A stretch of 64,000 bases of DNA from an uncultured Gammaproteobacteria bacterium (GCA_964533715.1 CAZHNI010000001.1:5514-69513); one strand, 5' to 3'; numbered from the stretch's first letter, positions 30,675 through 62,962 are shown. Made by a program: numbers and translations. The notes: generated from the sequence alone by a model not told the origin.

Positions 30675-31202
30675 ATGTCATTTTTTGATGTAATTCTTAT
30701 TTGTATAATAGTTGGATTTGGTTTTTTTGGATTTTGGTTTGGCTTCGTGCATACCATCGGTTCACTTATTGGCACCGTACTCGGTGTTTATTTGGCTACG
30801 CGTTGGTACTACCCTCTATCTGGTTGGATAATACACTTTACAGGTTGGACAGGAAATTTTATAAAAGTAATTGTATTTATTTTGGTTTTTGTAATAATCA
30901 ATCGAATTGTTGGTATTATTTTCTTTTTAATTGACAAAGCGCTATCTATTTTTACTCGTCTACCTTTTATACACGCGTTTGATCGTTTTTTGGGTTTTGC
31001 GTTTGGCATTGGTGAGGGTATTATTGTAATTGGTGTAGTGTTATATTTTATAAATAAATTTCCCTTAACGCCAGCTTTTATGACCGATCTGGCTCAGTCG
31101 AGCGTCGCTTTGTTGTGCGTGCATGTTGCTTCGTTGTTTCTCCCGCTTATTCCATTAGCTTTAAAACAAATTTCTGATTCGGTAAGCAACTTTGGTTTTT
31201 AG
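30675..31202 (+). CDS. cvpA: CvpA-family membrane protein
   Basis: Four TM helices with the FFDVILICIIVGFGFFGFWFG start typical of CvpA. Confidence 0.5.
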   Translation: MSFFDVILICIIVGFGFFGFWFGFVHTIGSLIGTVLGVYLATRWYYPLSGWIIHFTGWTGNFIKVIVFILVFVIINRIVGIIFFLIDKALSIFTRLPFIHAFDRFLGFAFGIGEGIIVIGVVLYFINKFPLTPAFMTDLAQSSVALLCVHVASLFLPLIPLALKQISDSVSNFGF

Positions 31203-31214
31203 AATTTTGTAATT

Positions 31215-32165
31215 ATGATGATAGATACACACGCCCATGCGCACTTTAACGCCTATAAGGATGATATGGACGAAGTAATAGAGCGGAGCCTTGCTAGGGG
31301 TGCTGTTATTAATTTAGTTGGGACCCAAGCAGATACGAGCAAGCGGGCGGTTGAAGTCGCCGAAAAATATGACGGAGTATACGCCACAATTGGTCTTCAT
31401 CCAGAACATCTTTTTTCCAAGTGGGTTGACGAAGAAGAAACCTCTTTTCAATCGCGGGAAGAAAGTTTTGATTATGAGTACTACAAAAGTTTGGCGGTAA
31501 TGCCCAAAGTTATTGGCATAGGGGAGTGTGGGTTAGATTTTTACCGTATTCCCGAAGGTATGACCAAAGAGGCTATGCTCCCTAAACAGGCAGAAGTTTT
31601 TAGGCAGCATATTAATTTATCTCAAGAAACAAACTTGCCGCTGATAATTCATTGTCGTGAGGCGCATGAGGAGATGATTGCCATCCTGAACACGTTCGTT
31701 TCGCTCAGTGTAAACTCCGCGGAGCGTGGTGAAGGACCCCCTCAAAAGCAAGGGGATTATTCGGTCGTCCCGAGCAATTCGGGACTCCCTCAGAATGACA
31801 ATGCAAACAAAAAATTACGTGGCACGATGCACTGCTACACCAGCAGCTGGATTAATGCCCAAAAATATTTAGAAATGGGTTTTTACATTGGTTTTACCGG
31901 CGTTATTACATTTCCTCCCCAAAAAGCGAACCCGCAAGCCCAGGCGGATTTATTGGAAGTTGTTCGTAAGATGCCAGAGGACAGGATACTTTTGGAAACC
32001 GATTGCCCTTATTTATCACCAATTCCATATAGAGGAAAGCGAGGCGAGCCTTGGATGATTGAGGCAACAGCAGCAAAAATAGCGGAACTCCGCGGAATAA
32101 GTTTGGAAGAAACCCTAAGCGTAACAACAAAAAATGCGCGGAACCTTTTTCAGAAAATGGTTTAG
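31215..32165 (+). CDS. tatD: TatD-family metal-dependent hydrolase with an in-frame palindromic-element insertion
   Basis: IDTHAHAH, GECGLDFY, IIHCREAHEE, HCYTSSW and ETDCPYL motifs. About 35 extra residues (VSLSVNSAERGEGPPQKQGDYSVVPSNSGLPQNDNA) between the third and fourth metal-binding motifs are encoded by repeat copy 31697-31798. Confidence 0.7.
   Translation: MMIDTHAHAHFNAYKDDMDEVIERSLARGAVINLVGTQADTSKRAVEVAEKYDGVYATIGLHPEHLFSKWVDEEETSFQSREESFDYEYYKSLAVMPKVIGIGECGLDFYRIPEGMTKEAMLPKQAEVFRQHINLSQETNLPLIIHCREAHEEMIAILNTFVSLSVNSAERGEGPPQKQGDYSVVPSNSGLPQNDNANKKLRGTMHCYTSSWINAQKYLEMGFYIGFTGVITFPPQKANPQAQADLLEVVRKMPEDRILLETDCPYLSPIPYRGKRGEPWMIEATAAKIAELRGISLEETLSVTTKNARNLFQKMV
31697..31798. 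repeat. degenerate palindromic element copy, in frame in tatD
   Basis: Right TIR CCCTCAGAATGACA, left arm degenerate (CGTTTCGCTCAGTG), inner palindrome GTCCCGAGcaatTCGGGAC. Confidence 0.55.
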
Positions 32166-32198
32166 TTAAGTTATTCACATTTTCTATTAAAAATTCTC

Positions 32199-32227
32199 TT
32201 GACCTTTTGTGTTAATTCGTTTATACT
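32199..32227 (+). promoter_or_regulatory. sigma-70-like promoter TTGACC-N17-TATACT upstream of the atp operon
   Basis: Near-consensus -35 and -10 with 17-nt spacer, located in the tatD-atpI spacer. Confidence 0.45.
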
Positions 32228-32243
32228 AATGTCGTCCTTTTTT

Positions 32244-32501
32244 ATGGAGAATAAGCCCCAAAAGACGTCTGATCGAGAGTATTATATATTTGCACTTCGC
32301 ATCATGGGCGATTTTGGGGCCACTATTGCGGCACCAGTCATAATTTTTGTACTTATTGGGCAATATTTTGATAATCGTTACGGTCATGCACCAATTTTTA
32401 CAGTAATTGGGTTTCTGTTGGCAGCATTTGGTTCTGGTAGCATTATCTACAAAAAGGCAAAAAAATACGGAAAAGAATTTCAACAGATGAATAAAAAGTA
32501 G
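32244..32501 (+). CDS. small two-TM membrane protein (AtpI/AtpZ-like, first gene of the atp operon)
   Basis: Position immediately upstream of atpB plus two hydrophobic helices. Start set downstream of the predicted promoter (tracked ORF 32199.. overlaps the promoter). Confidence 0.35.
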   Translation: MENKPQKTSDREYYIFALRIMGDFGATIAAPVIIFVLIGQYFDNRYGHAPIFTVIGFLLAAFGSGSIIYKKAKKYGKEFQQMNKK

Positions 32502-32503
32502 TT

Positions 32504-33286
32504 ATGTCCCAATTGATTTTACCACCACTCGGCGCTGAAACCATGTTTCATATTGGTTCGATACCTGTTACCAACACCATCGTTAACACTTGGATAGCGA
32601 TGGTTATTTTTTTAATCTTTGGCTTGGCGCTTCGCAAACGCGTATCGCTCCGACCAGGAAAATTGCAAAATTATTGCGAATATTTTTTGGATATTTTACT
32701 CGGATATTTTGACCAAGTAACTGGTAGCCGAAAAAAGACAATCCAATTTCTTCCTGTTGTTGGTTCAATTTTTTTCTTTATTTTACTTTCTAACTGGCTT
32801 GGGCTTCTCCCTGGAACCGGCAGCATTCTTAAGGGCCACGAACCATTGCTGCGTCCGGCTAATACCGATTTGAATTTAACCATTGCTATGGCCGCAGTGG
32901 CGGTTATTTCATCGCATATTTTTGGTTTTTTATCGGTAGGATTTTTTACACATATTGGTAAATTTGTTCAAATCAAAAATTTTATAAAAAGTATCCCCAA
33001 AGGTCCGGTTGCAATTTTTCAAGCAATTGTGGAATTTGCAGTTGGGCTAATTGAAATTGTGAGTGAACTTGCCAAAGTAATGTCGCTTTCACTTCGTCTT
33101 TTTGGTAATATTTTTGCTGGTGAAGTTTTAATGACGGTGATGCTTAGTTTGGTAGCGGCGGTGGTTCCGGTTCCATTTATGCTTTTGGAGTTGTTGGTCG
33201 GCATTATTCAAGCTAGTGTGTTTGCCATACTTACGTTAGTATATATGTCTGTTGCCAGCGCTGAACCACACGGAGCGGAACACTAA
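32504..33286 (+). CDS. atpB: F0F1 ATP synthase subunit a
   Basis: Five-six TM helices with the conserved Arg in LSLSLRLFGNIFAGEV. Confidence 0.85.
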   Translation: MSQLILPPLGAETMFHIGSIPVTNTIVNTWIAMVIFLIFGLALRKRVSLRPGKLQNYCEYFLDILLGYFDQVTGSRKKTIQFLPVVGSIFFFILLSNWLGLLPGTGSILKGHEPLLRPANTDLNLTIAMAAVAVISSHIFGFLSVGFFTHIGKFVQIKNFIKSIPKGPVAIFQAIVEFAVGLIEIVSELAKVMSLSLRLFGNIFAGEVLMTVMLSLVAAVVPVPFMLLELLVGIIQASVFAILTLVYMSVASAEPHGAEH

Positions 33287-33323
33287 AACATAAAAACACA
33301 AGAACATTAAAACACAATAAGCC

Positions 33324-33356
33324 GTTTTAATGTTTTAATGTTTTAATGTTTTAATG
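33324..33356. repeat. tandem octamer (TTTTAATG)x4 preceded by an 11-bp perfect hairpin in the atpB-atpE spacer
   Basis: AACATTAAAAC...GTTTTAATGTT stem, then GTTTTAATG repeated four times. Confidence 0.7.
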
Positions 33357-33650
33357 ATATCTACCCTGAATCGTATAAGCCGTACATTCGGCGATTCAAC
33401 GGAGATGGATATCAAGAAAGTTAATTCTATGGATCACGAATCACTCGTGACGATTATGAAGGGTGCCACGATGGCGCTCGGCGGCGTTGTTCCCGCCATA
33501 TCAATTGGTCGTATCGTAACCAAGGCTATGGAGTCTATTGGCCGTAATCCGGAATCAGCCGGTAAATTGTTCGTTCCCATGCTTCTTGGTGCTGCTTTTG
33601 CCGAAGCTATCGCTATTTACGCTCTTGTAGTTGTATTTACTCTCAAATAG
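33354..33650 (+). CDS. atpE: F0F1 ATP synthase subunit c (probable true start near 33429, MDHESL..., giving ~73 aa)
   Basis: Two-helix hairpin with GRNPE loop and conserved carboxylate in AAFAEAIAIYALVV. Confidence 0.8.
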   Translation: MISTLNRISRTFGDSTEMDIKKVNSMDHESLVTIMKGATMALGGVVPAISIGRIVTKAMESIGRNPESAGKLFVPMLLGAAFAEAIAIYALVVVFTLK

Positions 33651-33657
33651 CTCAACT

Positions 33658-33682
33658 CACCGGGCCACTTGTTGGCCTGGTG
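33658..33682 (+). promoter_or_regulatory. stem-loop between atpE and atpF (attenuator-like)
   Basis: CACCGGGCCA-cttgt-TGGCCTGGTG hairpin with no immediate T-run. Confidence 0.3.
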
Positions 33683-33701
33683 AACTTGGATTATTTTAAA
33701 C

Positions 33702-33824
33702 TGTCATTCTGAGCCTGCCTCCTGCATGCGCAGGTATGGCGCAGACAGGTGAAATGAAGAATCTTCCTATTATGAAGATCCTTCCCCAAAGGGGTCCCTT
33801 TGGGACGCTCTGCTCAGGATGACA
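33702..33824. repeat. palindromic element copy, intergenic atpE-atpF
   Basis: TIR TGTCATTCTGAGC...GCTCAGGATGACA. Carries the CCTGCCTCCTGCATGCGCAGG and GAAGAATCTTCCTATTATGAAGATCCTTC modules. Confidence 0.75.
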
Positions 33825-33835
33825 AAATAGAATCT

Positions 33836-34381
33836 ATGCAATTTATTGACACTGTTTACGCTGCCGAAATCGCCGAGTCAGCGCAGGAAGGCCTCTTAAC
33901 CTCCCTTGGTATCAATGGGACGTTATTTATTTTTCAACTCGTCAACTTTGCTATCGTGGCAACAATTATTTGGTTTTTAATTTTAAAACCACTTACAAAA
34001 AAAATGACTGAGCGTCAAAAGATGATTGACGACAGTATCGATAATTCAAAAAAAATTCAAGAAACACTTCAGCACAGTGAACAAAAATATCAGGAACGCA
34101 TTGACCAGGCGAAAGTGGAATATAATAAAATTTTGGAAAAAGCCACTGTTGATGCGGTAGCGACAACAGATGCCATGAAAGTAAAGGCTAAGCAAGAGAT
34201 TGAAATGTTGGTAGATCAGGCAAAAAGAAATATTAAAATTGAAAAAGAAGAAATGGTATCAGCTTTAAAAAATGAAACCGCTGGATTTATTGTAATGGCA
34301 TTAGAAAAAATTCTGGGAGAAAAAGTTGATAGTAAAAAAGATAAAGAAATGATTGAGGAAATGATTAAAAAGTTAAAATAA
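33836..34381 (+). CDS. atpF: F0F1 ATP synthase subunit b
   Basis: N-terminal TM helix (LFIFQLVNFAIVATIIWFLIL) followed by a long charged helix. Start set at ATG 33836, because tracked ORF 33800.. begins inside an intergenic palindromic element. Confidence 0.75.
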   Translation: MQFIDTVYAAEIAESAQEGLLTSLGINGTLFIFQLVNFAIVATIIWFLILKPLTKKMTERQKMIDDSIDNSKKIQETLQHSEQKYQERIDQAKVEYNKILEKATVDAVATTDAMKVKAKQEIEMLVDQAKRNIKIEKEEMVSALKNETAGFIVMALEKILGEKVDSKKDKEMIEEMIKKLK

Positions 34382-34382
34382 T

Positions 34383-34775
34383 ATGCCAAAAAAGGCACAG
34401 GATATTAAAAAAATAGCAGCCGCTCTATACGAGGTTACTAAAGATTTAAGCGGTCAGGAGCTCGGCAAAGCCTTGCAAGGTTTTGTGTCTCTTTTGGTAA
34501 GAAAAAATTTGTTTGGTCAGGCTGAAAAAATAATTTCGGCATTTGTAGCCTATGCAAAAAAACAAGAATGTATTCTAGAGATTGATGTAACGACTGCTCG
34601 AGAAATTGAAACGAAATTGTTGCAGGCAATCCAGAACGCTTTTGGTAAAAATGTAGAGTCTACAACAAACGTGGATGATTCCCTTGTCGGTGGTTTTGTA
34701 GTTAAAACAAAGGATACTGTTTTTGATGCCAGCTTAAAAACACAACTACAAAAATTAAAACAAAGCTTGATTTAA
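34383..34775 (+). CDS. atpH: F0F1 ATP synthase subunit delta (short form)
   Basis: Position between atpF and atpA and an OSCP-like C-terminal part (LVGGFVVKTKDTVFDASLKTQL). Confidence 0.65.
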   Translation: MPKKAQDIKKIAAALYEVTKDLSGQELGKALQGFVSLLVRKNLFGQAEKIISAFVAYAKKQECILEIDVTTAREIETKLLQAIQNAFGKNVESTTNVDDSLVGGFVVKTKDTVFDASLKTQLQKLKQSLI

Positions 34776-34776
34776 T

Positions 34777-34884
34777 TGTCATTGCGAGGAGCAAAGCGAC
34801 GAAGCAATCCCCCTGAGTTCAGTGCTCCTGAAAACAAGGGGATCGCCACGTCAGCCGGTGCGAACCGGCTTCCTCGCGATGATA
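34777..34884. repeat. palindromic element copy, intergenic atpH-atpA
   Basis: TIR TGTCATTGCGAGG...CCTCGCGATGATA; shares the GCAATCCCCCTGA core with the rlmN copy. Confidence 0.7.
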
Positions 34885-34904
34885 GCTTTAATCTAATAAA
34901 ACCT

Positions 34905-36392
34905 ATGTCCATCAACTCAATTGTCGAAGAACTCAGAAAGAATATTAGTAAATTTGAAAAGCAGGTCGAAGTGGAAGAAATTGGAACCGTTACCGAGGTA
35001 GGGGATGGTATTGCTCGTGTGAACGGCCTTACCAATTGCCAGGCGAGCGAAATGTTGGAATTCCCGGATAACACTATCGGCGTGGCCTTAAACTTGGATG
35101 AAGATTCCGTTGGCGCGGTTGTACTTGGTGAGTTTAAACATATTAAAGAAGGAGATACCGTAAAACGTACCGGCCGTATTTTATCGGTACCGGTTGGGGA
35201 GGAGCTTATTGGCCGCGTTGTTAACCCGCTTGGTGTTCCTATTGATGGTGGGGCTAACCTTAATAGCAAAAAATTCTATCCAATTGAAAAAATTGCTCCT
35301 GGTGTTATGACTCGTGAGGGCGTCAGCCAGCCAGTGCAAACTGGTATTAAAGCCATCGATGCCATGATCCCAATTGGTCGCGGTCAACGCGAGCTTATTA
35401 TTGGTGATCGTCAAACCGGCAAAACCGCTGTGGCAATTGATACAATTATTAACCAAAAAGGTCAGAACATGATTTGTGTGTACGTGGCAGTTGGGCAAAA
35501 GGAGGCAAAAATCGCCCGTATTATGGCAAAACTTAAAGAGGCTGGTGCCATGGATTATACTATTATTGTTTCGGCCGCCGCTTCTGACCCAGCCGCTCTG
35601 CAATATATTGCCCCGTATGCTGGTGTGGCTATGGCCGAATATTTTATGGACCAAGGTAAAGATGTGCTTTGTGTTTATGATGATCTTTCTAAACAAGCCG
35701 TTGCCTACCGTGAAATTTCACTCTTGCTGCGTCGCCCACCGGGTCGTGAAGCTTATCCTGGTGATGTTTTCTATTTGCACTCACGCCTCTTGGAACGTGC
35801 TTGTAGACGTAATAAAGAAGCTGGTGGCGGGTCAATTACCGCTCTTCCAATTATAGAAACTCAGGCCGGTGACGTTACCGCCTACATTCCAACCAACGTT
35901 ATTTCCATTACTGATGGTCAAATTTTCTTAGAATCAGATTTGTTTTATCGTGGTATTCGCCCGGCGGTAAACGTTGGTATCTCTGTGTCGCGTGTTGGCT
36001 CTTCCGCTCAAATTAAACCAATGAAAAAAGTAGCCGGTAAACTTAAGTTAAGTCTAGCCCAGTTTCGTGAACTTGAAGCTTTTTCTCAGTTTTCAAGCGA
36101 TCTTGACCCGGAAACAAAAAAACAAATTGATCTTGGTGTGCGCATGGTAGAAATTCTTAAACAACCACAGTATCAACCAATGGGTGTGGCTCATCAGGTT
36201 GCTATTATTTACGCGGTATCAAACGGATACGCCAATGAAATTGAGGTGCAAAATATGAAAGAATGGGAAGATAAATTTCACATTTTCTTTGAAAAAACTC
36301 GCCAGTCACTCTTAGAAAAAATTAGCAAAGGAGAGTGGGATGAGAAAATTGAAGGTGAGTTAAAAGAAGCGATTGCCGAATACAAAAAATAA
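34905..36392 (+). CDS. atpA: F0F1 ATP synthase subunit alpha
   Basis: Walker A GDRQTGKT and alpha-subunit signature regions. Start set at ATG 34905 ([10 protein letters not shown]...). The 43 upstream codons of tracked ORF 34776.. are an intergenic palindromic element read in frame. Confidence 0.9.
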
Positions 36393-36714
36393 ATATTTTA
36401 TGAAAAAGCTCCTCAGTCTAGAGGATATCAAATTAAGAATAGATCAAATTATCGATGAGCTTAGCTCCGGGGCAATTTCGATTAGAGAAATTGAACCTAT
36501 CCATGAAAAATTGCAGCAAGCTAGGGCGGATTATTTAAGGATTGTTGAAGAAATAAAAGCAGATGATCCAGAAATTTTAAATCATAATGCTACATTGGTT
36601 AGGGTGTACATTGAGATTGGCAGGCTCTATGACGCGGCTCTTTCGTTGATAAGAAAAATTGAACGAGAGGGAATAGGTGAATTTCGGTCTGAAGGTAGGG
36701 GATCTAAAAATTAG
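36373..36714 (+). CDS. hypothetical coiled-coil protein inserted between atpA and atpG
   Basis: ORF with coding-like composition overlapping the atpA end; no recognisable family. Confidence 0.3.
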
Positions 36715-36716
36715 AT

Positions 36717-37739
36717 ATGGCAGTAAGTACCAAAACAATTAAACGCCGCATCAAATCAATTTCCAACACCAAAAAAATTACTAAGGCCATGGAGATGATT
36801 AGTGCGGTAAAAATGCGCCGAGCGGTAGCCAATGTTTTGGCTACCCGAAATTATGCTAGCCTGGCTTGGGAAATGCTTAAAGAAATTTCCGAGTACACGC
36901 ACGATGGCCACCATGCACTCTTGCAAAAAAGGCCTGTTAAAAAAATCGGTCTCATTTTAATTACCAGTAACCGAGGGTTGGCTGGCGGTTTTAGCAGCCG
37001 GTTATTGCAGGAAGTAGACAGCTACATAAAAAAAATCACTCATCAAACTGTCATTCCGACGACACGTGCGCTCCGCTCAGTGCAGGCTCCAGAGGAATCT
37101 CTGGCTCATTCGAATGACGGACAGAGATCCCTCGTCGGCGCGAGCCTCACTCGGGATGACAAAGTGCAAATTGGCATTGAAGCCGACATCATTCTTACTG
37201 GTAAGCGCGGCAAAAAAATTTATCATCGTTTTGGGCACACTGTGGTGGCCGAATTTGATAAAGTAGATCTTACCACCAGAATTGAAGAAATTTTACCCAT
37301 GGCCCAGTTGGCGGTAAAAGAATTTGTTGCCGGAACATACGACCAAATTGTAGTGGCGTACATGCATTTTAAATCCGCAATTGAACAAGTGGCCACAGTA
37401 AAACAAATTTTGCCGCTTACGAAAGATTCAATTAAAGAACTGGCCGCCAAAGAAGCTGATGACACTGAAGAAATAGAAGAGAGCACATTTTTGTTTGAGC
37501 CAAACCCGGCGCTGGTGCTTGATGTACTCTTGCCACGTTTGGTTGAAATGCAAATGTATCAGGCAATTTTGGAATCGGACGCCTCCGAGCACAGCGCTCG
37601 CATGATGGCTATGCGAAACGCCAGTGATTCGGCCAGCGATATGATTAAAGAGTTGCAAAACAGCTTTAACAAAGCACGCCAAGCAGCTATTACCCAAGAA
37701 ATTAGTGAAATTGTGGGTGGTGCAGCGGCCCTGGAGTAA
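36717..37739 (+). CDS. atpG: F0F1 ATP synthase subunit gamma with an in-frame palindromic-element insertion
   Basis: Conserved N-terminus (TKTIKRRIKSISNTKKITKAMEMISAVKMRRA) and C-terminus (MMAMRNASDSA...ITQEISEIVGGAAALE). About 38 extra residues (TVIPTTRALRSV...TRDDK) are encoded by repeat copy 37049-37161. Confidence 0.85.
   Translation: MAVSTKTIKRRIKSISNTKKITKAMEMISAVKMRRAVANVLATRNYASLAWEMLKEISEYTHDGHHALLQKRPVKKIGLILITSNRGLAGGFSSRLLQEVDSYIKKITHQTVIPTTRALRSVQAPEESLAHSNDGQRSLVGASLTRDDKVQIGIEADIILTGKRGKKIYHRFGHTVVAEFDKVDLTTRIEEILPMAQLAVKEFVAGTYDQIVVAYMHFKSAIEQVATVKQILPLTKDSIKELAAKEADDTEEIEESTFLFEPNPALVLDVLLPRLVEMQMYQAILESDASEHSARMMAMRNASDSASDMIKELQNSFNKARQAAITQEISEIVGGAAALE
37049..37161. repeat. 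palindromic element copy, in frame in atpG
   Basis: TIR TGTCATTCCGACG...CTCGGGATGACA; inner GAGGAATCTCTGG...GGACAGAGATCC module. Confidence 0.75.
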
Positions 37740-37772
37740 TTTAGTTTCTAGTAATCTAAAAAACTAAATTGT

Positions 37773-38159
37773 ATGGAGGAAAGATATCGTGATTTTACAG
37801 AGCTTGAAGTTTGGCAAAAAGCGCATGAACTAAGATTAAAAGTACGGATTCTTTGCAAATTTCTACCATCTGAAGAAAAATATGGCCTGATCTCACAAAT
37901 TTTAAGATCGTCCGCTTCAGTCGGTGCTAATATAGCTGAAGGTCATGGTAGATTTCACTATCAAGAAAATATCCAATATTGCAGACAAGCAAGAGGATCG
38001 CTAGATGAAACTCGTGATCATCTAATCTATATACGTGACGCTGATTTAATAAGAAAAGTGAGTAGTTTGGAATATTTAGTTAATCTATGTTTACAAATAA
38101 AGGCTTTGTTAAATGGTTATATCGGTTATTTAAAAAAATGTAAACAAGGGCAAGACTAA
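37773..38159 (+). CDS. four-helix-bundle protein (23S rRNA intervening-sequence protein family)
   Basis: Characteristic LEVWQKAHEL...SASVGANIAEGHGR...DETRDHL pattern of the four-helix-bundle/IVS protein family; AT-richer than its neighbours. Confidence 0.6.
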   Translation: MEERYRDFTELEVWQKAHELRLKVRILCKFLPSEEKYGLISQILRSSASVGANIAEGHGRFHYQENIQYCRQARGSLDETRDHLIYIRDADLIRKVSSLEYLVNLCLQIKALLNGYIGYLKKCKQGQD

Positions 38160-38193
38160 TTTTTACTAACTTTCGAATAAACTAATATACTAA

Positions 38194-39573
<1,380 letters not shown>

Positions 39574-39638
39574 CAACATACAAGATACATGGAATAAAAT
39601 ATAATTTGTATATTTTTCCATGTATATTGAATATTTTT

Positions 39639-40049
39639 ATGATGTTTAAAATTGTTACACCCGAACGTCAAGTCTTCACCGATGAAGTTTCCCAAGTTAC
39701 TATGATGACCACCATGGGTGAAATTAGTATTTTACCGCATCACATTCCGCTCGTGGCTAATTTGGTTCCCGGAGAAATTAGATACAAAAAAAATAACGAG
39801 GAATTATCCATTGCTGTTTCGGGAGGTTTTGCCGAAGTCCGACCAGATGGGTCGGTTGTTATTCTCGCAGATACTGCCGAGCACGCACATGAAATTGACT
39901 TGGCTCGTGCCGAAGAAGCCAAATTACGCGCGGAAAAACTTATGTCCGAAGCGCGCAATAAAGATGAAGTGGATTATACGGCCCTCGCAGTAAAACTAGA
40001 AAAAGAATTAGCAAGACTCCGAGTAGGAAAAAAGTATCGCAAAGTCTAA
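39639..40049 (+). CDS. atpC: F0F1 ATP synthase subunit epsilon
   Basis: Beta-sandwich N-terminus (KIVTPERQVF...) and a C-terminal helical hairpin. Start set at ATG 39639. Confidence 0.75.
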   Translation: MMFKIVTPERQVFTDEVSQVTMMTTMGEISILPHHIPLVANLVPGEIRYKKNNEELSIAVSGGFAEVRPDGSVVILADTAEHAHEIDLARAEEAKLRAEKLMSEARNKDEVDYTALAVKLEKELARLRVGKKYRKV

Positions 40050-40138
40050 AATAACATTAACAAAATCGATCGCCCTAAACGATCGGTTTTTGTTTAAGTG
40101 TAACATTTTGGCTAATTTTGCGTCTTCTATACAAAGCA

Positions 40139-40162
40139 CCCCTGATTCCAGGGGCATTTTTT
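40139..40162 (+). terminator. rho-independent terminator of the atp operon
   Basis: CCCCTG-attc-CAGGGG hairpin followed by CATTTTTTG. Confidence 0.6.
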
Positions 40163-40167
40163 GTCTT

Positions 40168-40224
40168 TATTCCCCCTCCTCGACTCCTCCCTTATGTTTA
40201 GGGGAGGGATGTGGGCGGGGAATA
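40168..40224. repeat. GC-rich nested palindrome (second element class) downstream of the atp terminator
   Basis: TATTCCCC-CTCCTCG-ACTCCTCCC...GGGGAGGG...GGGGAATA nested inverted repeats; related in style to the helicase insert 44899-44975. Confidence 0.45.
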
Positions 40225-40235
40225 GAGTATAAATT

Positions 40236-41999
40236 ATGAAATATAACACAAGATTAACGTTAAAAATTTATTGGAGCGAAGCACGTCGACACTGGCTTTC
40301 GATGATTATTATTGTTATCGGAGTGGTGGGCGGTTCTTTTGCTGGAATTATTATCCCCCTTTATTTTAAGGCATTTTTTGATATTCTAGCGAGCTCAAAT
40401 TCATCAGCTGCTTCGGTCTCGGCTCTTTTTGGAGTGCTTGTTGCCATTGCCATGGTTGAGGCTGCTCGTTGGCTGTGTTGGCGCACCGCTGGTTTTTTTA
40501 ATAATTATTTTCAACCAAAAGTAATGGCAGCTTTGGCTAATCGATGTTTTGCATATTTGCACAAGCACTCTTTTGGGTACTTTAACAGCAATTTTGTTGG
40601 CTCTTTGGTTAAGCGTGTTAATTGGTTTACGCGCGCCTTCGAAAGTGTCGCCGATAAAATTACCTGGACATTCATTAACTTGTTTGTAGATTTAGGCGTG
40701 GTGGTGTTTATTTTATTTCGAAAAGATTTTCGTCTAGGCCTCGGCAGTTTAGCTTGGATTATTTTATTCTTATCGGTAAACTGGATTTTTACTTCATACA
40801 AATTACGGTTTGATATTAAACGCAACGAAGCCGAAACAAAAGCCACCGGTGTTTTAGCCGATACCATTACTAATAACAGTAATGTGAAGTTGTTTGTTGG
40901 GTATGGGCGCGAACGCCAAAGGTTTGCTGAGGCTATGGAAAAGGTACGCTATCTTCGCCGTTTCACTTGGAACCTCGACAGTGTATTTGAAGCTGTGCAA
41001 GGTTTTTTGGTAGTTTTGTTTGAGCTTGGTATTTTTTACTTAGCCACTATTCTTTGGAAAGAAGGACATTTAACGGTAGGTGACTTTGTCCTGCTTCAAT
41101 CATTCCTTATAATAATTTTTGATAAGGTGTGGGATTTTGGGAAGATCGTGCGTAATTTGTATACAGATTTATCGGATGCCGAAGAGATGACTGTCATATT
41201 AAATACCCCGCACGAAATTCAGGATGCTCCGGGAGCCAAAAAACTGCGCGTAGAAGCGGGTCTTATTCAGTTCAAGAATGTCGATTTTTATTATCACGAG
41301 ACGCGCAAAATTTTCCGAAAATTAAATTTGGAAATTGCCGGCAGTGAAAAAATTGCCTTAGTTGGCCCATCGGGGGCAGGTAAATCTACCATTATCAAAT
41401 TGCTTCTTCGCATGCATGATGTTTCGGGTGGGAGTATTTATATTGATAACCAAAAAGTATCGGCTGTAACGCAAGAAAGTTTGTGGGGAGCCATTAGTAT
41501 GGTGCCGCAGGATCCAATTTTGTTTCACCGCACGCTACTAGAAAATATTCGCTACGGCAAACCAGAGGCTACGGATGAAGAGGTGATTGCGGCCGCCAAA
41601 CTCGCACATTGTCATGAATTCATTTCGGAATTTCCAGACAAATATGAAACTTATGTGGGCGAACGCGGTGTCAAATTATCTGGCGGTGAACGTCAGCGTG
41701 TAGCTATTGCCCGGGCAATTTTACGCAACGCTCCAATACTGGTACTCGATGAAGCCACCTCGAGTCTTGATTCAGAATCCGAACATCTTATTCAAGATGC
41801 GTTGGCCAAACTCATGGAGAACAAAACCGTTATTGTAATCGCTCACCGTCTGTCTACTATAATGAAAATGGACAGAATTTTAGTGGTAGACCACGGCGAG
41901 GTGGTAGAAAGCGGTACCCACCAAGAGCTTCTTAAACTCAAATCCGGCCTTTATCATCAGCTGTGGAAACGACAGGCAGGTGGGTTTATACAGGACTAG
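40236..41999 (+). CDS. ABC transporter, fused permease/ATP-binding (MsbA-like exporter)
   Basis: Six-TM N-terminal domain, Walker A GPSGAGKST, signature LSGGERQRVAIARA, Walker B ILVLDEATS. Confidence 0.75.
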   Translation: MKYNTRLTLKIYWSEARRHWLSMIIIVIGVVGGSFAGIIIPLYFKAFFDILASSNSSAASVSALFGVLVAIAMVEAARWLCWRTAGFFNNYFQPKVMAALANRCFAYLHKHSFGYFNSNFVGSLVKRVNWFTRAFESVADKITWTFINLFVDLGVVVFILFRKDFRLGLGSLAWIILFLSVNWIFTSYKLRFDIKRNEAETKATGVLADTITNNSNVKLFVGYGRERQRFAEAMEKVRYLRRFTWNLDSVFEAVQGFLVVLFELGIFYLATILWKEGHLTVGDFVLLQSFLIIIFDKVWDFGKIVRNLYTDLSDAEEMTVILNTPHEIQDAPGAKKLRVEAGLIQFKNVDFYYHETRKIFRKLNLEIAGSEKIALVGPSGAGKSTIIKLLLRMHDVSGGSIYIDNQKVSAVTQESLWGAISMVPQDPILFHRTLLENIRYGKPEATDEEVIAAAKLAHCHEFISEFPDKYETYVGERGVKLSGGERQRVAIARAILRNAPILVLDEATSSLDSESEHLIQDALAKLMENKTVIVIAHRLSTIMKMDRILVVDHGEVVESGTHQELLKLKSGLYHQLWKRQAGGFIQD

Positions 42000-42005
42000 G
42001 GTAAT

Positions 42006-42070
42006 TGTCATTCCGAGCGAGGCCAAAGGCCGGCGAGAAATCTCTGTCTCAATCAAATGGACAGAGATTT
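42006..42070. repeat. truncated palindromic element copy (left TIR plus AAATCTCTGTCtcaatcaaatgGACAGAGATTT module)
   Basis: TGTCATTCCGAGCGAGGCC left end identical to the helicase copies; right TIR missing. Confidence 0.65.
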
Positions 42071-42075
42071 TTTTC

Positions 42076-42104
42076 TGGACAAATGTTTATATTTGTGCTA
42101 AAAT
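42076..42104 (+). promoter_or_regulatory. sigma-70-like promoter TGGACA-N17-TAAAAT upstream of rlmN
   Basis: Lies between two palindromic-element copies (42006-42070 and 42123-42187). Confidence 0.4.
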
Positions 42105-42122
42105 GAGCAAAAATTATCGAAT

Positions 42123-42187
42123 TGTCATTCTGAGTGAAACGAAGAATCCTCCTATTATGAAGATCCTTCGCTCCGCTCAGGATGACA
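42123..42187. repeat. short palindromic element copy immediately upstream of, and overlapping, the rlmN start region
   Basis: TGTCATTCTGAGTG...CGCTCAGGATGACA with the GAAGAATCCTCCTATTATGAAGATCCTTC module. Confidence 0.75.
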
Positions 42188-42199
42188 GACGATTATCAC

Positions 42200-43411
42200 A
42201 TGACTAAAATTGTCAAAACAATAGAATCCATTCTAGCTAATGAACCCGCCTTCCGCATTAAGCAAATTGAAAAGGCGTGGTTTGATGTGTCCTTAAATTC
42301 GTACGATGAAATTACTACCTTGCCAAAAGAGCTTCGCGAAAAATTAAAAGATATTCCCTGGTTAAGTTTGGAAGTCCACACCGAATTAAAAAGCAAAATG
42401 GATAACACGCGCAAATACCTTTTTAAACTAGGGGATGGGAATTTGATTGAGATGGTCTTGATGGGTCGTATGTCATTGCGAGCCCCGAAGGGGCGCGGCA
42501 ATCCCCCTGATTTGATCGAGGACGTTGACGAGGAGATTGCTTCGTCAGTCGCTGCGACGCTCCTTTCTCGCAATGACACATCGGCGATTGGCCGCGACAC
42601 CAGTGGCGATCGTTACACCATCTGTATTTCATCTCAAGCCGGGTGCCCCATGCGGTGTGCGTTTTGCGCCACGAGCAAAAGCGGTTTTAAGCGTAATCTT
42701 ACCGCCGAAGAAATTATAGATCAATATCGTTTCGCCCAGCGACTACTGGCCAAAGAAAATAATCGGGTGAATAATATTGTGCTCATGGGCCAAGGGGAAC
42801 CGCTGGTAAACTATGAGAACGTAAAAAAAGCGATCAATACTATTTTAAAAAACAGCGACATCGGCTCTACCAAAATAACTCTATCCACTGTTGGTTATGT
42901 GCCCGCCATGGAAAAAATGATAACCGACACCGACTTTCCGCCGGTGCGTTTTGCCTTGTCACTTCACAGCGCTATAGAAGAATCGCGTAAAAAAATTATT
43001 CCAACGCACAAACCAGGGTTTTTGGAATGGCTCGTGAAGTGGGGGAATGCCTACCACGAAAAATTTGGCAACCGCACCCATTTTATTGGTTTTGAGTACA
43101 TTATGTTAAGTGGGGTAAATGATGATGAAGCACATTTGAAGGCACTGATAAAATTGTGCAAACGTTTTCCTATCGTTCGCGTTAACCTCATTCCGTACAA
43201 CACCACCAACGATGCCGGTGAGGTTGATGAAATTAATAAATTGGAAGAACAAATGGGCTCTAATTATCGCATTTTTACCCGCACCCCGCACGAGCTTATT
43301 GAACATTGGCACGAGAGTCTTATGGATGCGGGAATTACGTCCACTATCCGTTATTCGCAGGGGCAGGATATTGCGGCGGCGTGTGGGCAACTCCGGAATA
43401 AAGAAAAATAG
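42200..43411 (+). CDS. rlmN: radical SAM rRNA/tRNA adenosine-C2 methyltransferase RlmN with an in-frame palindromic-element insertion
   Basis: Radical SAM CxxxCxxC (CPMRCAFC), GQGEPL, and a C-terminal catalytic Cys region. About 36 extra residues (MSLRAPKGRGNPPDLIEDVDEEIASSVAATLLSRND) upstream of the cluster are encoded by repeat copy 42471-42578. Start set at ATG 42200, because tracked start 42182 lies inside a repeat. Confidence 0.75.
   Translation: MTKIVKTIESILANEPAFRIKQIEKAWFDVSLNSYDEITTLPKELREKLKDIPWLSLEVHTELKSKMDNTRKYLFKLGDGNLIEMVLMGRMSLRAPKGRGNPPDLIEDVDEEIASSVAATLLSRNDTSAIGRDTSGDRYTICISSQAGCPMRCAFCATSKSGFKRNLTAEEIIDQYRFAQRLLAKENNRVNNIVLMGQGEPLVNYENVKKAINTILKNSDIGSTKITLSTVGYVPAMEKMITDTDFPPVRFALSLHSAIEESRKKIIPTHKPGFLEWLVKWGNAYHEKFGNRTHFIGFEYIMLSGVNDDEAHLKALIKLCKRFPIVRVNLIPYNTTNDAGEVDEINKLEEQMGSNYRIFTRTPHELIEHWHESLMDAGITSTIRYSQGQDIAAACGQLRNKEK
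42471..42578. repeat. palindromic element copy, in frame in rlmN (108 bp, 36 codons)
   Basis: TIR TGTCATTGCGAGC...CTCGCAATGACA. Confidence 0.75.
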
Positions 43412-44376: not shown

Positions 44377-47300
44377 ATGGGAAAATACTCTTTAAACAAG
44401 GCGCAACGTGAAGCCGTGGAGTATACCAGCGGCCCGCTTTTGATTGTGGCTGGGGCGGGGACGGGAAAGACGACGGTGATTACAAGTAAAATTTGTCGGT
44501 TGATTGAGGAAAAACTCGCCAAACCCGAGGAAATTTTGGCATTAACGTTTACCGAAAAAGCGGCGGCGGAAATGCAGGATAGGGTAGATGAGATAACCAA
44601 TATTGGCTACGCCGATCTCCACATTTCTACCTTCCACGCCTTTTGTCAAAAAATTCTGGAGCGGCATGCCATTGATATCGGCCTCTCCAATTCGTTTAAA
44701 CTCCTCACCGACACGGCGGGCTGGGTTTTGCTCCACAAAAATTTGGATAAATTTAATTTGGATTACTACCGACCGCTCGGCAACCCTACTAAACACATTC
44801 ACGAATTTTTAAAACATTTTTCTAAGTGCAAAGATGAATTAATTACACCGCAGGAATATTTGGAGTATGCGGAAGGTTTAAAATTGAACAATGGACGAGA
44901 CCCCACCCTGCCCTCCCCTTTGCGAAGGAGAGGGGACAAAACCCCCTCCTCTGCAGAGGAGGGGGTAGGGGGAGATCTCGCGGAGGTCGAGCGGCTTACG
45001 GAAATTGCCAACGCGTATCACACGTATAATCAACTGCTTTTGGACAACGCGCTATTTGATTTTGGCGATTTGCTTTTTTATACCGTCAAATTATTTCGCG
45101 AACGGCCGAATGTGCTCAAAATGTTCCAGAATAAATATAAATATATTTTGGTGGATGAATTTCAGGATGTGAACTATTCGCAGTATGAATTAATTAAACT
45201 CCTGGCGGACGCCTCATTGTCATTTCGACCGGAGCCCCAAAGGGGCGAAGTGGAGAAATCCCTGTCTCAATCACGAACGGACAGAGATTCCCTGCCTGCA
45301 CCATGCCTGCGCATGCAGGAGGCAGGCTCGTCGGCCTCCGGCCTCGCTCGGAATGACAATATTGTTGGTCCCAACCTCACCGTGGTAGGGGATGATGACC
45401 AAAGTATTTATGCCTTTCGCGGCGCCAGTGTGGCGAATATTCTAAGGTTTAAAGATGATTATCCAACAGCCAAAGAAGTGGTGCTATCGGAAAATTTTCG
45501 TTCCGGCCAAAAGATTTTGGATGTGGCGTATGAGTCTATTCAGAACAATAACCCGGATCGGTTGGAAGTGAAGTTAAAGATAGACAAGCGACTAAAGGCC
45601 AAAAGGCCATCTGTCATTTCGACGACGAAGGAGAAATCTCTGGCTCACCAAACGATGAATAGAGATTCCCTGCCTGCACCATGCCTGCGCATGCAGGAGG
45701 CAGGCTCGTCGGCCTCCGGCCTCGCTCGGAATGACAATGGGGATGGCGTGGTGATACATTTGCACAAACCAACCGTCGAAGACGAGGTAGCGGCTGTTTT
45801 GGACGAAATTACGCGTATTAAAACGGTTACCGAAGGCGTAACCTGGGATGATTTTGCTATTTTGGTTCGTGCCAACAATCACGCGGATGCGTTTATAAAC
45901 CAACTGCAAACACGAGGCATTCCATACGAATTTTTGGCTTCTAGCGGATTGTATCGTCAACCGATTATTTTGGATTGCATAAACTTTTTTAAACTCCTGA
46001 ATAATTATCACGAATCCAGCGCAATTTATCGACTGCTCTGTTTACCTTTTTTTGAATTTAGAGAAAATGATTTACAAAAAATTACCTTTAATGCCAAGCG
46101 CAAAAGTATTTCGTATTACGAAGCACTCAAACGCGCTCCCGAATTTGATGTGTCGCAAGCAGGGATTAGCGTGTGTGCTAAATTGGTGGAAGTAATTCAT
46201 GCCGGCCTCCAGAGTATGCGTTACGAAAAGCCATCGGTGGTGCTGTATTCATTTTTGGAAAATAGTGGTTACCTCAAATACTTAACACACCAGGAAAACG
46301 AAGGTAAGGGCGATGTGATTCGCCAAATTCATTATTTAAAACAGTTTTTTGATTACATTGCGCAGTATGAATCGGTAACGCCTGAGGCGCATGTGGTCGG
46401 GTTTATAGAGCATTTTATGATGGTAGTGGACGCGGGTGATAAGGGAAGCCTCTACCAGCCGAGCGACACACCGGATTCCGTAAATATTTTGACGGTGCAC
46501 GCCTCCAAGGGCTTGGAATTTCGCTATGTGTTTGTAGTGAATTTGGTAGAAGATCGGTTTCCATCACGCAGTCGCAGTGACGCGCTGGAAATTCCGCTTG
46601 AACTCGTGAAAGAGCAATTGCCGGAAGGCGATAGCCATATTCAAGAAGAACGACGATTGTTTTATGTGGCCATGACGCGCGCCAAGGAACGTTTGTATTT
46701 TACCAGCGCGAGCGATTATGGTGGTACGCGCACAAAAAAGATTAGCCGATTTTTGGCGGAGTTAGATTTTGGTTCTGTCATTCTGAACGGAGCAAAGCGC
46801 AGTGAAGAATCCCTGTCTGCGCAGGCAGGTCTGTCTCAATCACCAACCGACGGACAGGGATCCTTCGCTTCGCTCAGGATGACAAAAAAAGTAAATGAAA
46901 TGAGTGAGCGAGTGTACGAAACGCCAAAAACTTTTTCATTCTCACAATTGCGATCGTACGAAACCTGTCCATATCAATACAAACTGGCGCATATTTTGCA
47001 TATCCCCATGAAGGGCAGTGCGAGTTTTAGTTTTGGTTCCAGCATGCACAACACACTCCAAGCGTTTTATGAACGGGTAATTGAGCTTAACAGTTCCAAA
47101 CAAGTCTCACTTTTTGACACACCCAAACCATCTGTCATCCCGAGCGTAGTCGAGGGATCCCTTTCGCCAACGTCAAGGGATTCCTCCACTCCGCTACGCT
47201 CCGGTCGGAATGACAAAGCGGTGAAAGTACCAGAATTTGAGGAGCTCTTAAAAATGTACGACGCTAAGTGGATTTCGGATTGGTTTAAGGATAAACGCCA

Positions 47301-62233: not shown

Positions 62234-62962
62234 ATGGCAAAAAATAGAATCGTAAATACCAAATTTTGGATGGACGATTATATTTCTAACCTTGATCCGG
62301 TTGAAAAATTGCTATTTTTGTACTTTATAACTTGTCCGGCTACGGATATTTCTGGTGTATATGAAGTTCCAATTAAAACGGTGGCGACTGATACCGGAAT
62401 TGACCACCAAACTGTTACCAGAATTATTAAGCGTTTTACCCGCGACAAGAAGATTTTTTATATCCATGGATGGGTTGGAGTGGCAAATTTTGCCAAACAC
62501 CAACTTAATAATCCAAAAGTACAGGCAGGTATTAAAAATGGCTTATCTAAGGCACCAAAAGAGATTTTAGATAGACTATCATTGTCTATGGATAGTCTAT
62601 TGCACACAGACACAGACACAGACACAGACACAGACACAGACATTGAGAGAGAGCGACCACAAGCACTTGAAAAACAAATCGAACCATTTTCCGGCCAATA
62701 CGCACCCTCAATGATCGCCAAATTCATTCTTCACTGGTCGGAACAAGACAAACGCGGTCGGGAGCGCTGGCAGAAAGAAAAAACGTGGGAAATTGGTAAG
62801 CGTCTGGCGCGCTGGAAATTACAGGATGAAGAATGGAGTCATCAGCGCGATGCGCGGCAAGAGTTAAAAAAGGTCGAAGAGATGCCAACCCACCGAGAAC
62901 CGGTAGCAGAGAGAACAGACACAGGATTTTCAAAACCAGATTTTAGTAGGTTTCAAAAATAA
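62234..62962 (+). CDS. phage replisome-organizer-like protein (N-terminal winged-helix domain) with internal (TD)7 repeat
   Basis: N-terminus NTKFWMDDYISNLDPVEKLLFLYFI resembles the phage replication-organizer N-terminal family; weak call. Confidence 0.4.
   Translation: MAKNRIVNTKFWMDDYISNLDPVEKLLFLYFITCPATDISGVYEVPIKTVATDTGIDHQTVTRIIKRFTRDKKIFYIHGWVGVANFAKHQLNNPKVQAGIKNGLSKAPKEILDRLSLSMDSLLHTDTDTDTDTDTDIERERPQALEKQIEPFSGQYAPSMIAKFILHWSEQDKRGRERWQKEKTWEIGKRLARWKLQDEEWSHQRDARQELKKVEEMPTHREPVAERTDTGFSKPDFSRFQK
62604..62643. repeat. (ACAGAC)n hexanucleotide microsatellite inside the replisome-organizer-like gene
   Basis: CACAGACACAGACACAGACACAGACACAGACACAGACA encodes TDTDTDTDTDTDTD. Confidence 0.8.

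Follow-up and report, generated by a model that had tools for sequence, protein, structure and literature searches.

An IVS-type four-helix-bundle gene in the ATP synthase operon of a Magasanikbacteria-like bacterium: a probable old, operon-riding cassette next to a separate orphan gene

Introduction

How do genes unrelated to ATP synthase come to lie, and to be tolerated, between the F1 subunit genes of an essential operon? This question is raised by a 64,000-nt stretch of DNA deposited under an uncultured Gammaproteobacteria bacterium (GCA_964533715.1, CAZHNI010000001.1:5514-69513; hereafter the window, with positions counted from its first nucleotide). Its + strand carries a complete F-type ATP synthase operon, in which Pfam profiles recover the order atpI, B, E, F, H, A, G, D, C, and an original prediction made from the sequence had reported two additional, non-atp open reading frames (ORFs), one between atpA and atpG (ORF1) and one between atpG and atpD (ORF2). 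Both were found where they had been placed, on the + strand and co-oriented with the atp genes. Since the best relatives of atpG and ORF2 are metagenome-assembled genomes (MAGs) of Magasanikbacteria / Patescibacteria, the window is taken as DNA of a tiny-genome, Magasanikbacteria-like bacterium of the candidate phyla radiation (CPR).

ORF2 belongs to the four-helix-bundle (4HB) family PF05635 / TIGR02436, a very large family whose function has been a puzzle since the description of rRNA intervening sequences (IVSs) in the early 1990s; the ways in which IVSs originate and move are likewise an open question. The Coxiella IVS, of 428 nt, has an inverted-repeat stem and tandem heptamers just upstream of the S23p ORF, lies in sense orientation in the precursor and is excised by RNase III (PMC4990558). 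ORFs of the 23S_rRNA_IVP family are also found in rRNA insertions of CPR bacteria (10.1101/2024.02.27.582315) and, as described by Zhang and Ye (2014), between cas genes, e.g., cmr3 and cmr2 in Pleurocapsa (PMC3936711).

In this work, we compared the locus with related operons and with 4HB genes in other contexts, and we consider it likely that ORF2 and its flanks (~37736-38198) constitute an old, mostly vertically inherited, operon-riding cassette of the IVS type, that ORF1 is a separate orphan, and that the palindromic elements scattered through the operon are unrelated to both.

Results

ORF2 is a four-helix-bundle gene of foreign composition

The part of the operon under study holds the following features; loci used for comparison are designated by L numbers.

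34905-36392, + strand: atpA (F1 alpha), from Pfam ATP-synt_ab_N/ab/ab_C and the sequence
36400-36714, + strand: ORF1, orphan 104-aa protein, from a match only to itself in protein libraries, an AlphaFold (AF2) model and the coding-frame score
36717-37739, + strand: atpG (F1 gamma), 340 aa including a 41-aa in-frame insert, from Pfam ATP-synt in two stretches and alignment with L002, L003 and L082
37736-37771, + strand: left flank of the 4HB cassette, with a residual 5' arm (37736-37745 and 37749-37752) that overlaps the atpG stop codon
37773-38159, + strand: ORF2, 128-aa four-helix-bundle protein (PF05635 / TIGR02436; S23p / Avd-like), from profiles, structures and composition
38181-38198, + strand: residual 3' arm of the cassette, AACTAATATACTAAGTTAC, pairing with 37736-37752 with marginal support
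38206-39573, + strand: atpD (F1 beta), from Pfam

The profile searches bore out the assignment of ORF2 to the four-helix-bundle/IVS family, with matches to PF05635 (23S_rRNA_IVP; E 1.7e-30, 105.8 bits, cut-off 33.8) and TIGR02436 (E 1.5e-31, 108.8 bits, cut-off 24), while an Rfam search of positions 31000-43000 returned no rRNA or Rfam match. The AF2 model consists of four helices in a bundle (predicted local distance difference test, pLDDT, 93.3) and was superposed by Foldseek on 2GSC (Xcc0516; template modelling score, TM, 0.86-0.95) and 2RLD (BT_0352; TM 0.72-0.88), both of which ORF2 also matches by sequence and both of which are entries with five chains; Avd (4DWL), a protein of diversity-generating retroelements (DGRs), is more distant (TM 0.71-0.86), and 8UB7 is similar too. 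The RxxxSxxxNxxE motif, described as conserved in the 23S_rRNA_IVP family (PMC3936711), is present in ORF2 as R45, S49, N53 and E56, positions that are invariant or nearly so in an alignment of 32 sequences. By analogy with Avd and S23p, the protein may act by nucleic-acid binding through a pentameric ring.

ORF2 is compositionally foreign: its GC content at third codon positions (GC3) is 0.20, against 0.36-0.46 in the long genes atpA, atpG, atpD and atpC, and its codon score is lower than that of every training gene.

In relatives, the gene lies between inverted arrays of 8-nt repeats

ORF2 and its flanks belong to a family of small promoter-less cassettes in which a 4HB gene is placed between inverted arrays of ~8-nt repeats. 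In the relatives, the two flanks of the ORF, each of 40-60 nt, repeat one another in inverted orientation; the upstream arm is GT-rich (e.g., GTTTAATAGTTTATTGGTTTAATAG), the downstream arm is its complement, and both form a stem of 28-40 bp with the ORF in its loop. Duplex energies of the arms are -27 to -38 kcal/mol in L003, L082, L085, L096, L099 and L103, and folding of the whole L003 cassette gave a 38-bp closing stem in the minimum free energy (MFE) and centroid structures alike. Over 74 unique loci, the stem z-score against shuffles had a median of -2.0 and lay below -3 in 27 (36%). The arms are tandem arrays with an 8-nt period (lag-8 autocorrelation 0.43 and 0.41, vs 0.34 for other spacers between co-oriented genes on these contigs; p = 4e-4 and 3e-3), and their sequences vary from locus to locus yet are complementary within each locus.

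The extent of the unit can be read from L088, L089 and L090, in which 4HB proteins with 90-93% identity are encoded in three unrelated contexts: after the ATPase gene of a type II secretion system (T2SS), between the genes for a membrane protein and a solute-binding protein, and after gpmI. Nucleotide similarity among these copies spans from ~40 nt 5' of the ATG to ~40 nt 3' of the stop codon and, because it is limited to these margins, the cassette can be described as a discrete unit of ~480 nt. In L090 (9-3390), two tandem gpmI paralogues are each followed by a 4HB gene of a different subfamily (979-1323 and 2992-3390).

The cassettes follow the direction of their hosts. The upstream ORF was co-oriented with the 4HB gene in 62/64 loci (binomial p = 2.5e-6, with an assumed reference rate of 0.75) and the downstream ORF in 54/63. 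Further, in the 22 tightly packed loci the stem begins at or inside the stop codon of the upstream gene and its end precedes the next ATG by a median of 6 nt; the unpaired nucleotides between the two host cistrons number 4 (median). The 4HB protein is under strong purifying selection (dN/dS 0.04-0.11). With regard to the features of an autonomous insertion sequence or transposon, ORF2 is the sole ORF of its cassette, which contains no transposase gene; as for the flanking short direct repeats that had been suggested as a check, none was convincing beyond TAATTT, which includes both stop codons.

The copy in the window is eroded

The arms of the window's own copy are largely eroded. What remains is a pairing of 37736-37745 and 37749-37752 with 38181-38184 and 38189-38198 (14 bp, -12.9 kcal/mol), whose base adjoins the atpG stop codon and ends 7 nt before the atpD ATG. 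The 8-nt periodicity is degenerate in these flanks, and the full-length fold favours a local hairpin in the left flank (37738-37747 with 37761-37770; -8 kcal/mol, z -2.6).

A scan of the inserts for promoters and terminators found no excess over shuffles (19 promoter-like sites, 18.3 expected), on account of which ORF2 would be transcribed by read-through from the atp promoter. Co-transcription would also fit the co-orientation and the short spacers, of 33 nt on the atpG side and 46 nt on the atpD side.

ORF2 occupies a junction that was probably filled in the ancestor of the clade

Carriers were sought with ORF2 as the query in metagenome contigs and in the encoding contigs. The order atpG-4HB-atpD was recovered in five other genomes, with protein identities of 71% (L003), 72% (L082), 63% (L093), 59% (L094) and 61% (L096). 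In a tree built from atpA and atpD, ((((L004,(W,(L002,L003))),L013),L096),((L094,L093),L082)), where W is the window, carriers span the whole clade on both of its branches and L002, L004 and L013 are nested non-carriers, so that one ancestral insertion followed by three losses is the simplest history. Judged from these sequences, the arrangement was probably in place in the common ancestor of the clade and disappeared on three occasions. One of the non-carriers, L013, has in its atpG|atpD spacer (6940-7000) a CA-rich 8-mer array, ttaatccattaattaatcaacaaatttactaatcaac, of the kind typical of a cassette 3' arm; it resembles a solo 3' arm relic and, as such, would be evidence for cassette loss. 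A small tree of the 4HB proteins is broadly compatible with the atp tree, one genome apart, and copies from other operons are nested among the atp-linked copies, so that the atp site may have been their source.

These data do not agree with the reading of the original prediction if it is taken to mean that ORF2 was inserted in this genome alone. An ancestral arrangement had there been equated with the presence of both genes in all related operons; this is the case in part for ORF2, which is at the same position in five genomes, and not for ORF1, which is unique. A recent, private insertion of ORF2 by an active mobile element would account for the atypical GC3, for the presence of the same family in other operons and for the lack of the gene in L002, whose atpG is the most similar; we nevertheless regard it as improbable, given the occupied junction in five clade-spanning genomes at 59-72% protein identity, the arm relic of L013, the erosion of the window arms, the lack of a second ORF2 copy in the window and a 4HB tree already largely congruent with the genome tree.

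Recruitment of ORF2 within the clade as a functional accessory of F1Fo, e.g., in assembly or regulation, is a still weaker explanation. Its position is kept in genomes where atpG is only 38-56% identical and the 4HB protein 59-72% identical, and dN/dS is ~0.1, as would be expected of such a factor; against it, equally close family members (70-72%) follow genes for a glycosyltransferase, a T2SS ATPase, gpmI and others, another 4HB gene is found at atpF|atpH of L017, the gene was lost without replacement in the three nested genomes, and the wider family has links with rRNA IVSs, cas loci and DGRs.

DGRs abound in CPR genomes, which speaks for considering ORF2 as the Avd accessory protein of such an element. 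This assignment, also favoured by the description of PF05635 as an Avd-like family (PMC10053308) and by the similarity of the model to 4DWL and 8UB7, can be dismissed almost entirely, as the Avd equivalog of NCBIfam, NF033474, does not match ORF2 at E < 0.01, the direct neighbours of the gene are atpG and atpD, and the window contains no reverse transcriptase (RT)-like ORF (the sole YxDD ORF encodes a 340-aa protein without the RT SQ motif) and no repeat of the template/variable (TR/VR) type, its sole long direct repeat being a pair of palindromic elements; the missing RT, TR/VR pair and Avd-model match rule out ORF2 as a DGR component in the window.

Several observations weigh against ORF2 being an old cassette of the IVS type. 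A clearly significant stem is present in only about a third of the loci; in the window, the stem reaches z -2.1, with 3.5% of shuffles equal or better, and the MFE fold of the whole cassette lacks the arm stem and is as stable as shuffles (z 0.11). Comparison of arm stability in sense and antisense gave no bias (23/38, p = 0.34), and the arms might act either as RNA or as DNA. No target-site duplication, transposase or empty/filled pair between near-identical strains was found; mobility of the cassette is inferred from its distribution, and the copies in three contexts are old (dS ~0.9), which means that the movement was not recent. In addition, L082, L093, L094 and L096 were found via the 4HB query, which biases the frequency of the arrangement, and L082 groups with L003 in the 4HB tree but with L093 and L094 in the atp tree, a discordance that leaves some room for re-insertion or transfer at the same site.

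The atpA|atpG and atpG|atpD junctions are tolerant hotspots in Patescibacteria

The synteny sample comprised 80 atpG-centred loci, one genome per species, in which all atp genes were mapped; it included 18 Patescibacteria operons sampled without reference to inserts and 57 operons from other bacteria. A gene-sized gap at either junction was present in 9/18 Patescibacteria and in 0/57 of the others (Fisher p = 4e-7), where the maximum was 125 nt at atpA|atpG and 116 nt at atpG|atpD, and no gap exceeded 200 nt. In L002, whose atpG is the most similar among the genomes sampled, the two spacers measure 9 and 19 nt and both ORFs are missing. Because the junctions are closed outside Patescibacteria and in L002, the canonical atp order is the ancestral state, which supports the original prediction in treating both ORFs as additions to a conserved order.

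The cargo at these junctions is varied: a 4HB gene in L003, orphan ORFs in L004 and L013, a PQ-loop/SemiSWEET-like protein in L012, a Bro-N plus Gp49/helix-turn-helix toxin-antitoxin-like pair in L006, a GIY-YIG nuclease in L016, and small reverse-strand ORFs in L007, L014 and L017. A GIY-YIG nuclease is also found at atpA|atpG in L094, which was retrieved via the ORF2 query and stands outside the sample of 18. Both junctions are thus tolerant hotspots in the Patescibacteria clade; the claim of an insertion-tolerant hotspot holds at the level of the clade, and that of at least five insertion events is a fair one, the three palindromic elements being absent in L002 and L003 and up to seven extra features having been counted.

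Other atp junctions hold inserts as well: a 4HB gene of a second subfamily lies between atpF and atpH in L017 (2440-2790), genes for GxxExxY proteins (TIGR04256) lie at atpD|atpC in L016 (9183-9611) and L017 (9738-10166), and a cyclophilin gene plus an orphan ORF lie at atpD|atpC in L093 (4892-5596) and L094 (4863-5582).

ORF1 is regarded as a separate, lineage-specific orphan gene

The longest frame of ORF1 (36373-36714) begins with a TTG that overlaps the end of atpA and has the 113 codons first reported; the ATG at 36400, from which it has 104 codons, is the more likely start and is also that of the public gene call (P0001). From this ATG, ORF1 occupies the whole gap, starting 7 nt past the atpA stop codon and ending 2 nt ahead of the atpG ATG, a tight spacing to both neighbours that is typical of translational coupling. 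The chance of a 104-codon open frame at 37.5% GC, estimated from base composition, is ~7e-4 per frame and ~2e-3 over the three sense frames. The codon-usage score of +0.13 is the best of the six frames (the other five <= -0.40) and lies ~1.8 standard deviations under the mean of the window genes, and GC3 is 0.32, similar to atpH and atpF.

ORF1 had no match in Pfam, NCBIfam, PHROG or PADLOC; a word-indexed search of 5.8 G protein clusters returned ORF1 alone, and a full HMMER pass over 1.84 G representatives returned, apart from itself, multi-stretch matches to long proteins (323-1304 aa), which were rejected as homologues and read as coiled-coil or low-complexity noise. A diverged 4HB protein was also rejected (hhalign probability 0.15%), and blastp and tblastn revealed no relation to any atp subunit or to the ORFs that occupy this junction in L004, L013 and L012. 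The single-sequence AF2 model is a three-helix bundle (pLDDT 84.4; predicted TM score, pTM, 0.71) with generic fold matches only, and describes ORF1 better than the coiled coil of the original prediction. The sister genomes L002 and L003 have no insert at atpA|atpG, ORF1 is absent from all sampled relatives, and it has no flanking arms; there is no sign that it is a member of a mobile cassette.

We regard ORF1 as a real lineage-specific orphan gene, with a predicted three-helix-bundle product that is probably translated by coupling with atpA and atpG. It could instead be no gene at all, but a frame left open by chance, within either a decayed spacer or what is left of an earlier insertion; this is unlikely, though it deserves more weight than any other alternative for ORF1. 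The empty homologue and family searches, the low codon score and the generic fold matches are all in keeping with it, and a high pLDDT can be obtained for helical, Lys/Glu-rich ORFs from AT-rich DNA, a caution that applies to the homologue-free ORF1 and tempers its reading as a gene. Conversely, the 324-nt gap is almost exactly filled, which has the low chance given above, the frame is clearly the top of the six, the single-sequence model is confident, and the spacing on both sides is of the coupling type.

A new lineage-specific regulatory or assembly subunit of F1, analogous to the alphaproteobacterial zeta subunit or to IF1, would agree with the location between atpA and atpG, the coupling-type spacing, the small all-helical predicted bundle and the host-like GC3. 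We give this very little credence: ORF1 shows no sequence or specific fold likeness to known subunits or inhibitors, it is missing in every sampled relative, sister genomes included, and the same junction holds unrelated cargo elsewhere (PQ-loop, GIY-YIG, orphan ORFs). A role with F1 is possible but unsupported; as a lineage-specific orphan, ORF1 would rather represent a separate and later acquisition than that of ORF2.

Palindromic elements and hairpins are further features of the operon

Upstream of atpA, the starts given by Pfam are 32199 (atpI), 32504 (atpB), 33354 (atpE), 33800 (atpF) and 34383 (atpH). The operon and its surroundings also hold the following elements, to which no strand is assigned.

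33281-33356: ORF-less 33-bp hairpin in the atpB|atpE spacer (-23.8 kcal/mol, z -6.8)
33702-33824: palindromic element between atpE and atpF, from the sequence
34777-34885: palindromic element between atpH and atpA, from the sequence
37049-37161: palindromic element (TGTCATTCCGA...CTCGGGATGACA) in frame inside atpG, from the sequence and the atpG alignment
39571-39639: AT-rich hairpin with 34-nt arms that fills the atpD|atpC spacer (z -3.0), second-longest inverted repeat of the window
26261, 42005-42070, 42122-42185, 42472, 44360, 45252-45360, 45630-45738 and 46776-47215: further copies or termini of the palindromic family in the window

The element inside atpG adds 41 aa that are absent from L002, L003 and L082, and another is found in frame at ~31695-31801, inside a TatD-like gene (31215-32165); the termini of both are TGTCATTCYGA...TCRGRATGACA, and their in-frame insertion into coding genes resembles that of the Rickettsia palindromic elements. 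The N-terminus of the atpF ORF (MGRSAQDDKIES) is the translation of the end of element 33702-33824, and a mechanical atpA ORF of 538 aa, from a TTG at 34776, reads through element 34777-34885; atpA probably starts at the ATG at 34905 and not at that TTG. In the 64 kb, the family counts at least a dozen copies or termini, with a cluster at 42-47 kb, and two of the copies are 90% identical over 109 nt.

In relatives, termini of the same kind flank a small GIY-YIG gene at atp junctions (L094, 1575-2000; L016, 6990-7560), the L094 nuclease matching Pfam GIY-YIG with E 3e-15; there is no GIY-YIG gene in the window. Since GIY-YIG genes are bracketed by such termini in relatives, the ORF-less elements of the window may be derivatives of the type of miniature inverted-repeat transposable elements (MITEs), or partners of a GIY-YIG element. 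The palindromic elements are a family separate from the 4HB cassette, and the three in the operon would represent further independent insertions of an unrelated MITE-like family.

The hairpin at 33281-33356 is of another kind, being composed of (AAAACATA)x3.8 and (GTTTTAAT)x4.1 as inverted 8-nt arrays, with the CA-rich arm first and a 10-nt loop. No inverted repeat of the 64 kb is longer and no 8-nt array pair of the window is cleaner, and the 8-mers are of the type found in the 4HB cassette arms of L003, a sister genome; the hairpin could represent either an IVS-type stem without an ORF or an arm-to-arm junction. The AT-rich hairpin at 39571-39639 overlaps the atpD stop and the atpC start region. 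Elsewhere in the window, a perfect hexanucleotide microsatellite, (ACACAG)x6.5, lies at 62604-62642.

Discussion

For ORF2 as an old operon-riding cassette, we propose the following course of events. The cassette would have entered the atpG|atpD spacer in an ancestor of the Magasanikbacteria-like clade and would since have been inherited mostly vertically, being lost in some lineages and having seeded copies in, or exchanged them with, other operons. At the base of the stem, the stop codon of the upstream gene would come to lie a few nucleotides from the start codon of the downstream gene, and the insert might thus be tolerated in an essential operon either through preserved translational coupling or, by analogy with rRNA, through excision by RNase III; no rnc gene lies within the window. 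In the window itself, the arms would have decayed while the protein was kept under selection, ORF2 now being a fixed resident gene.

Among the closest known systems is the ORF-bearing 23S rRNA IVS of Coxiella burnetii (S23p) and Leptospira, which encodes a protein of the same PF05635 / TIGR02436 family. As far as sequence can tell, the design of the ORF2 cassette is the architecture of these IVSs in the setting of mRNA operons: in the cassettes of the relatives the ORF lies in the loop of an inverted-repeat stem, tandem repeats of 7-8 nt stand beside the start codon, the ORF is sense to the host transcript and without a promoter of its own (as is ORF2, co-oriented with atpG and atpD), and the distribution is sporadic, with gains and losses. 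Some differences should be considered. The cassette is hosted by a protein-operon spacer and not by an rRNA helix, so the location that defines an IVS is lacking; strong purifying selection acts on the 4HB protein, in contrast to the decay of the ORF in Coxiella; and the window's own stem is eroded, RNase III excision being known for Coxiella and proposed here by analogy.

Three other systems share part of this design. The 23S_rRNA_IVP genes of cas operons likewise lie between two genes of an unrelated operon and have the RxxxSxxxNxxE motif in common with ORF2; they were interpreted as CRISPR-associated, and the relevant passage of that report offers no reading in terms of flanking repeats or hitch-hiking (PMC3936711). 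Avd of the Bordetella phage BPP-1 (4DWL) is distantly homologous and shares the four-helix-bundle fold; it forms a pentameric ring, the ORF2 relatives 2GSC and 2RLD have five chains per entry and ORF2 was modelled as a monomer, and Avd differs in its setting, as ORF2 has no RT, TR/VR pair or Avd-equivalog match. Integron cassettes are also promoter-less, co-directional single-ORF units expressed from an upstream promoter, and carry an imperfect inverted-repeat element of recombination or structure. Unlike them, the 4HB cassettes are single and inside housekeeping operons, have repeats of 8-nt tandem units on both sides of the ORF, and come with no integrase, attI or array.

A broader proposal, which we put forward tentatively and hold to be doubtful as a whole, is that 4HB genes are carried by operon-riding cassettes of a widespread class that has so far gone undescribed, each with a promoter-less ORF between inverted 8-nt arrays, and with ORF1 being, separately, a small F1-associated protein. 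In such a class, the stem would rejoin interrupted cistrons, by coupling or RNase III excision, both in essential operons and in rRNA genes; the pentameric protein would attach to the repeat arrays and aid the spread of the element, possibly with a reverse transcriptase in trans; and rRNA IVSs would be merely the special case that was noticed first.

Returning to the old, mostly vertically inherited cassette that we prefer, its main value lies in the generalisation that it allows: IVS-type 4HB genes can be seen as operon-riding cassettes flanked by repeat arrays, discrete and nearly always co-directional with the gene before them, under purifying selection and tolerated even in the essential atp operon. 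This leads to testable hypotheses, namely that the stem is needed for RNA processing or translational coupling and that the protein binds the 8-mer arrays. It also calls for caution, as the presence of 4HB genes in cas or other operons need not mean a functional association. For the Patescibacteria, it indicates that small selfish or orphan inserts abound in housekeeping operons, as they do in the rRNA genes of these bacteria.

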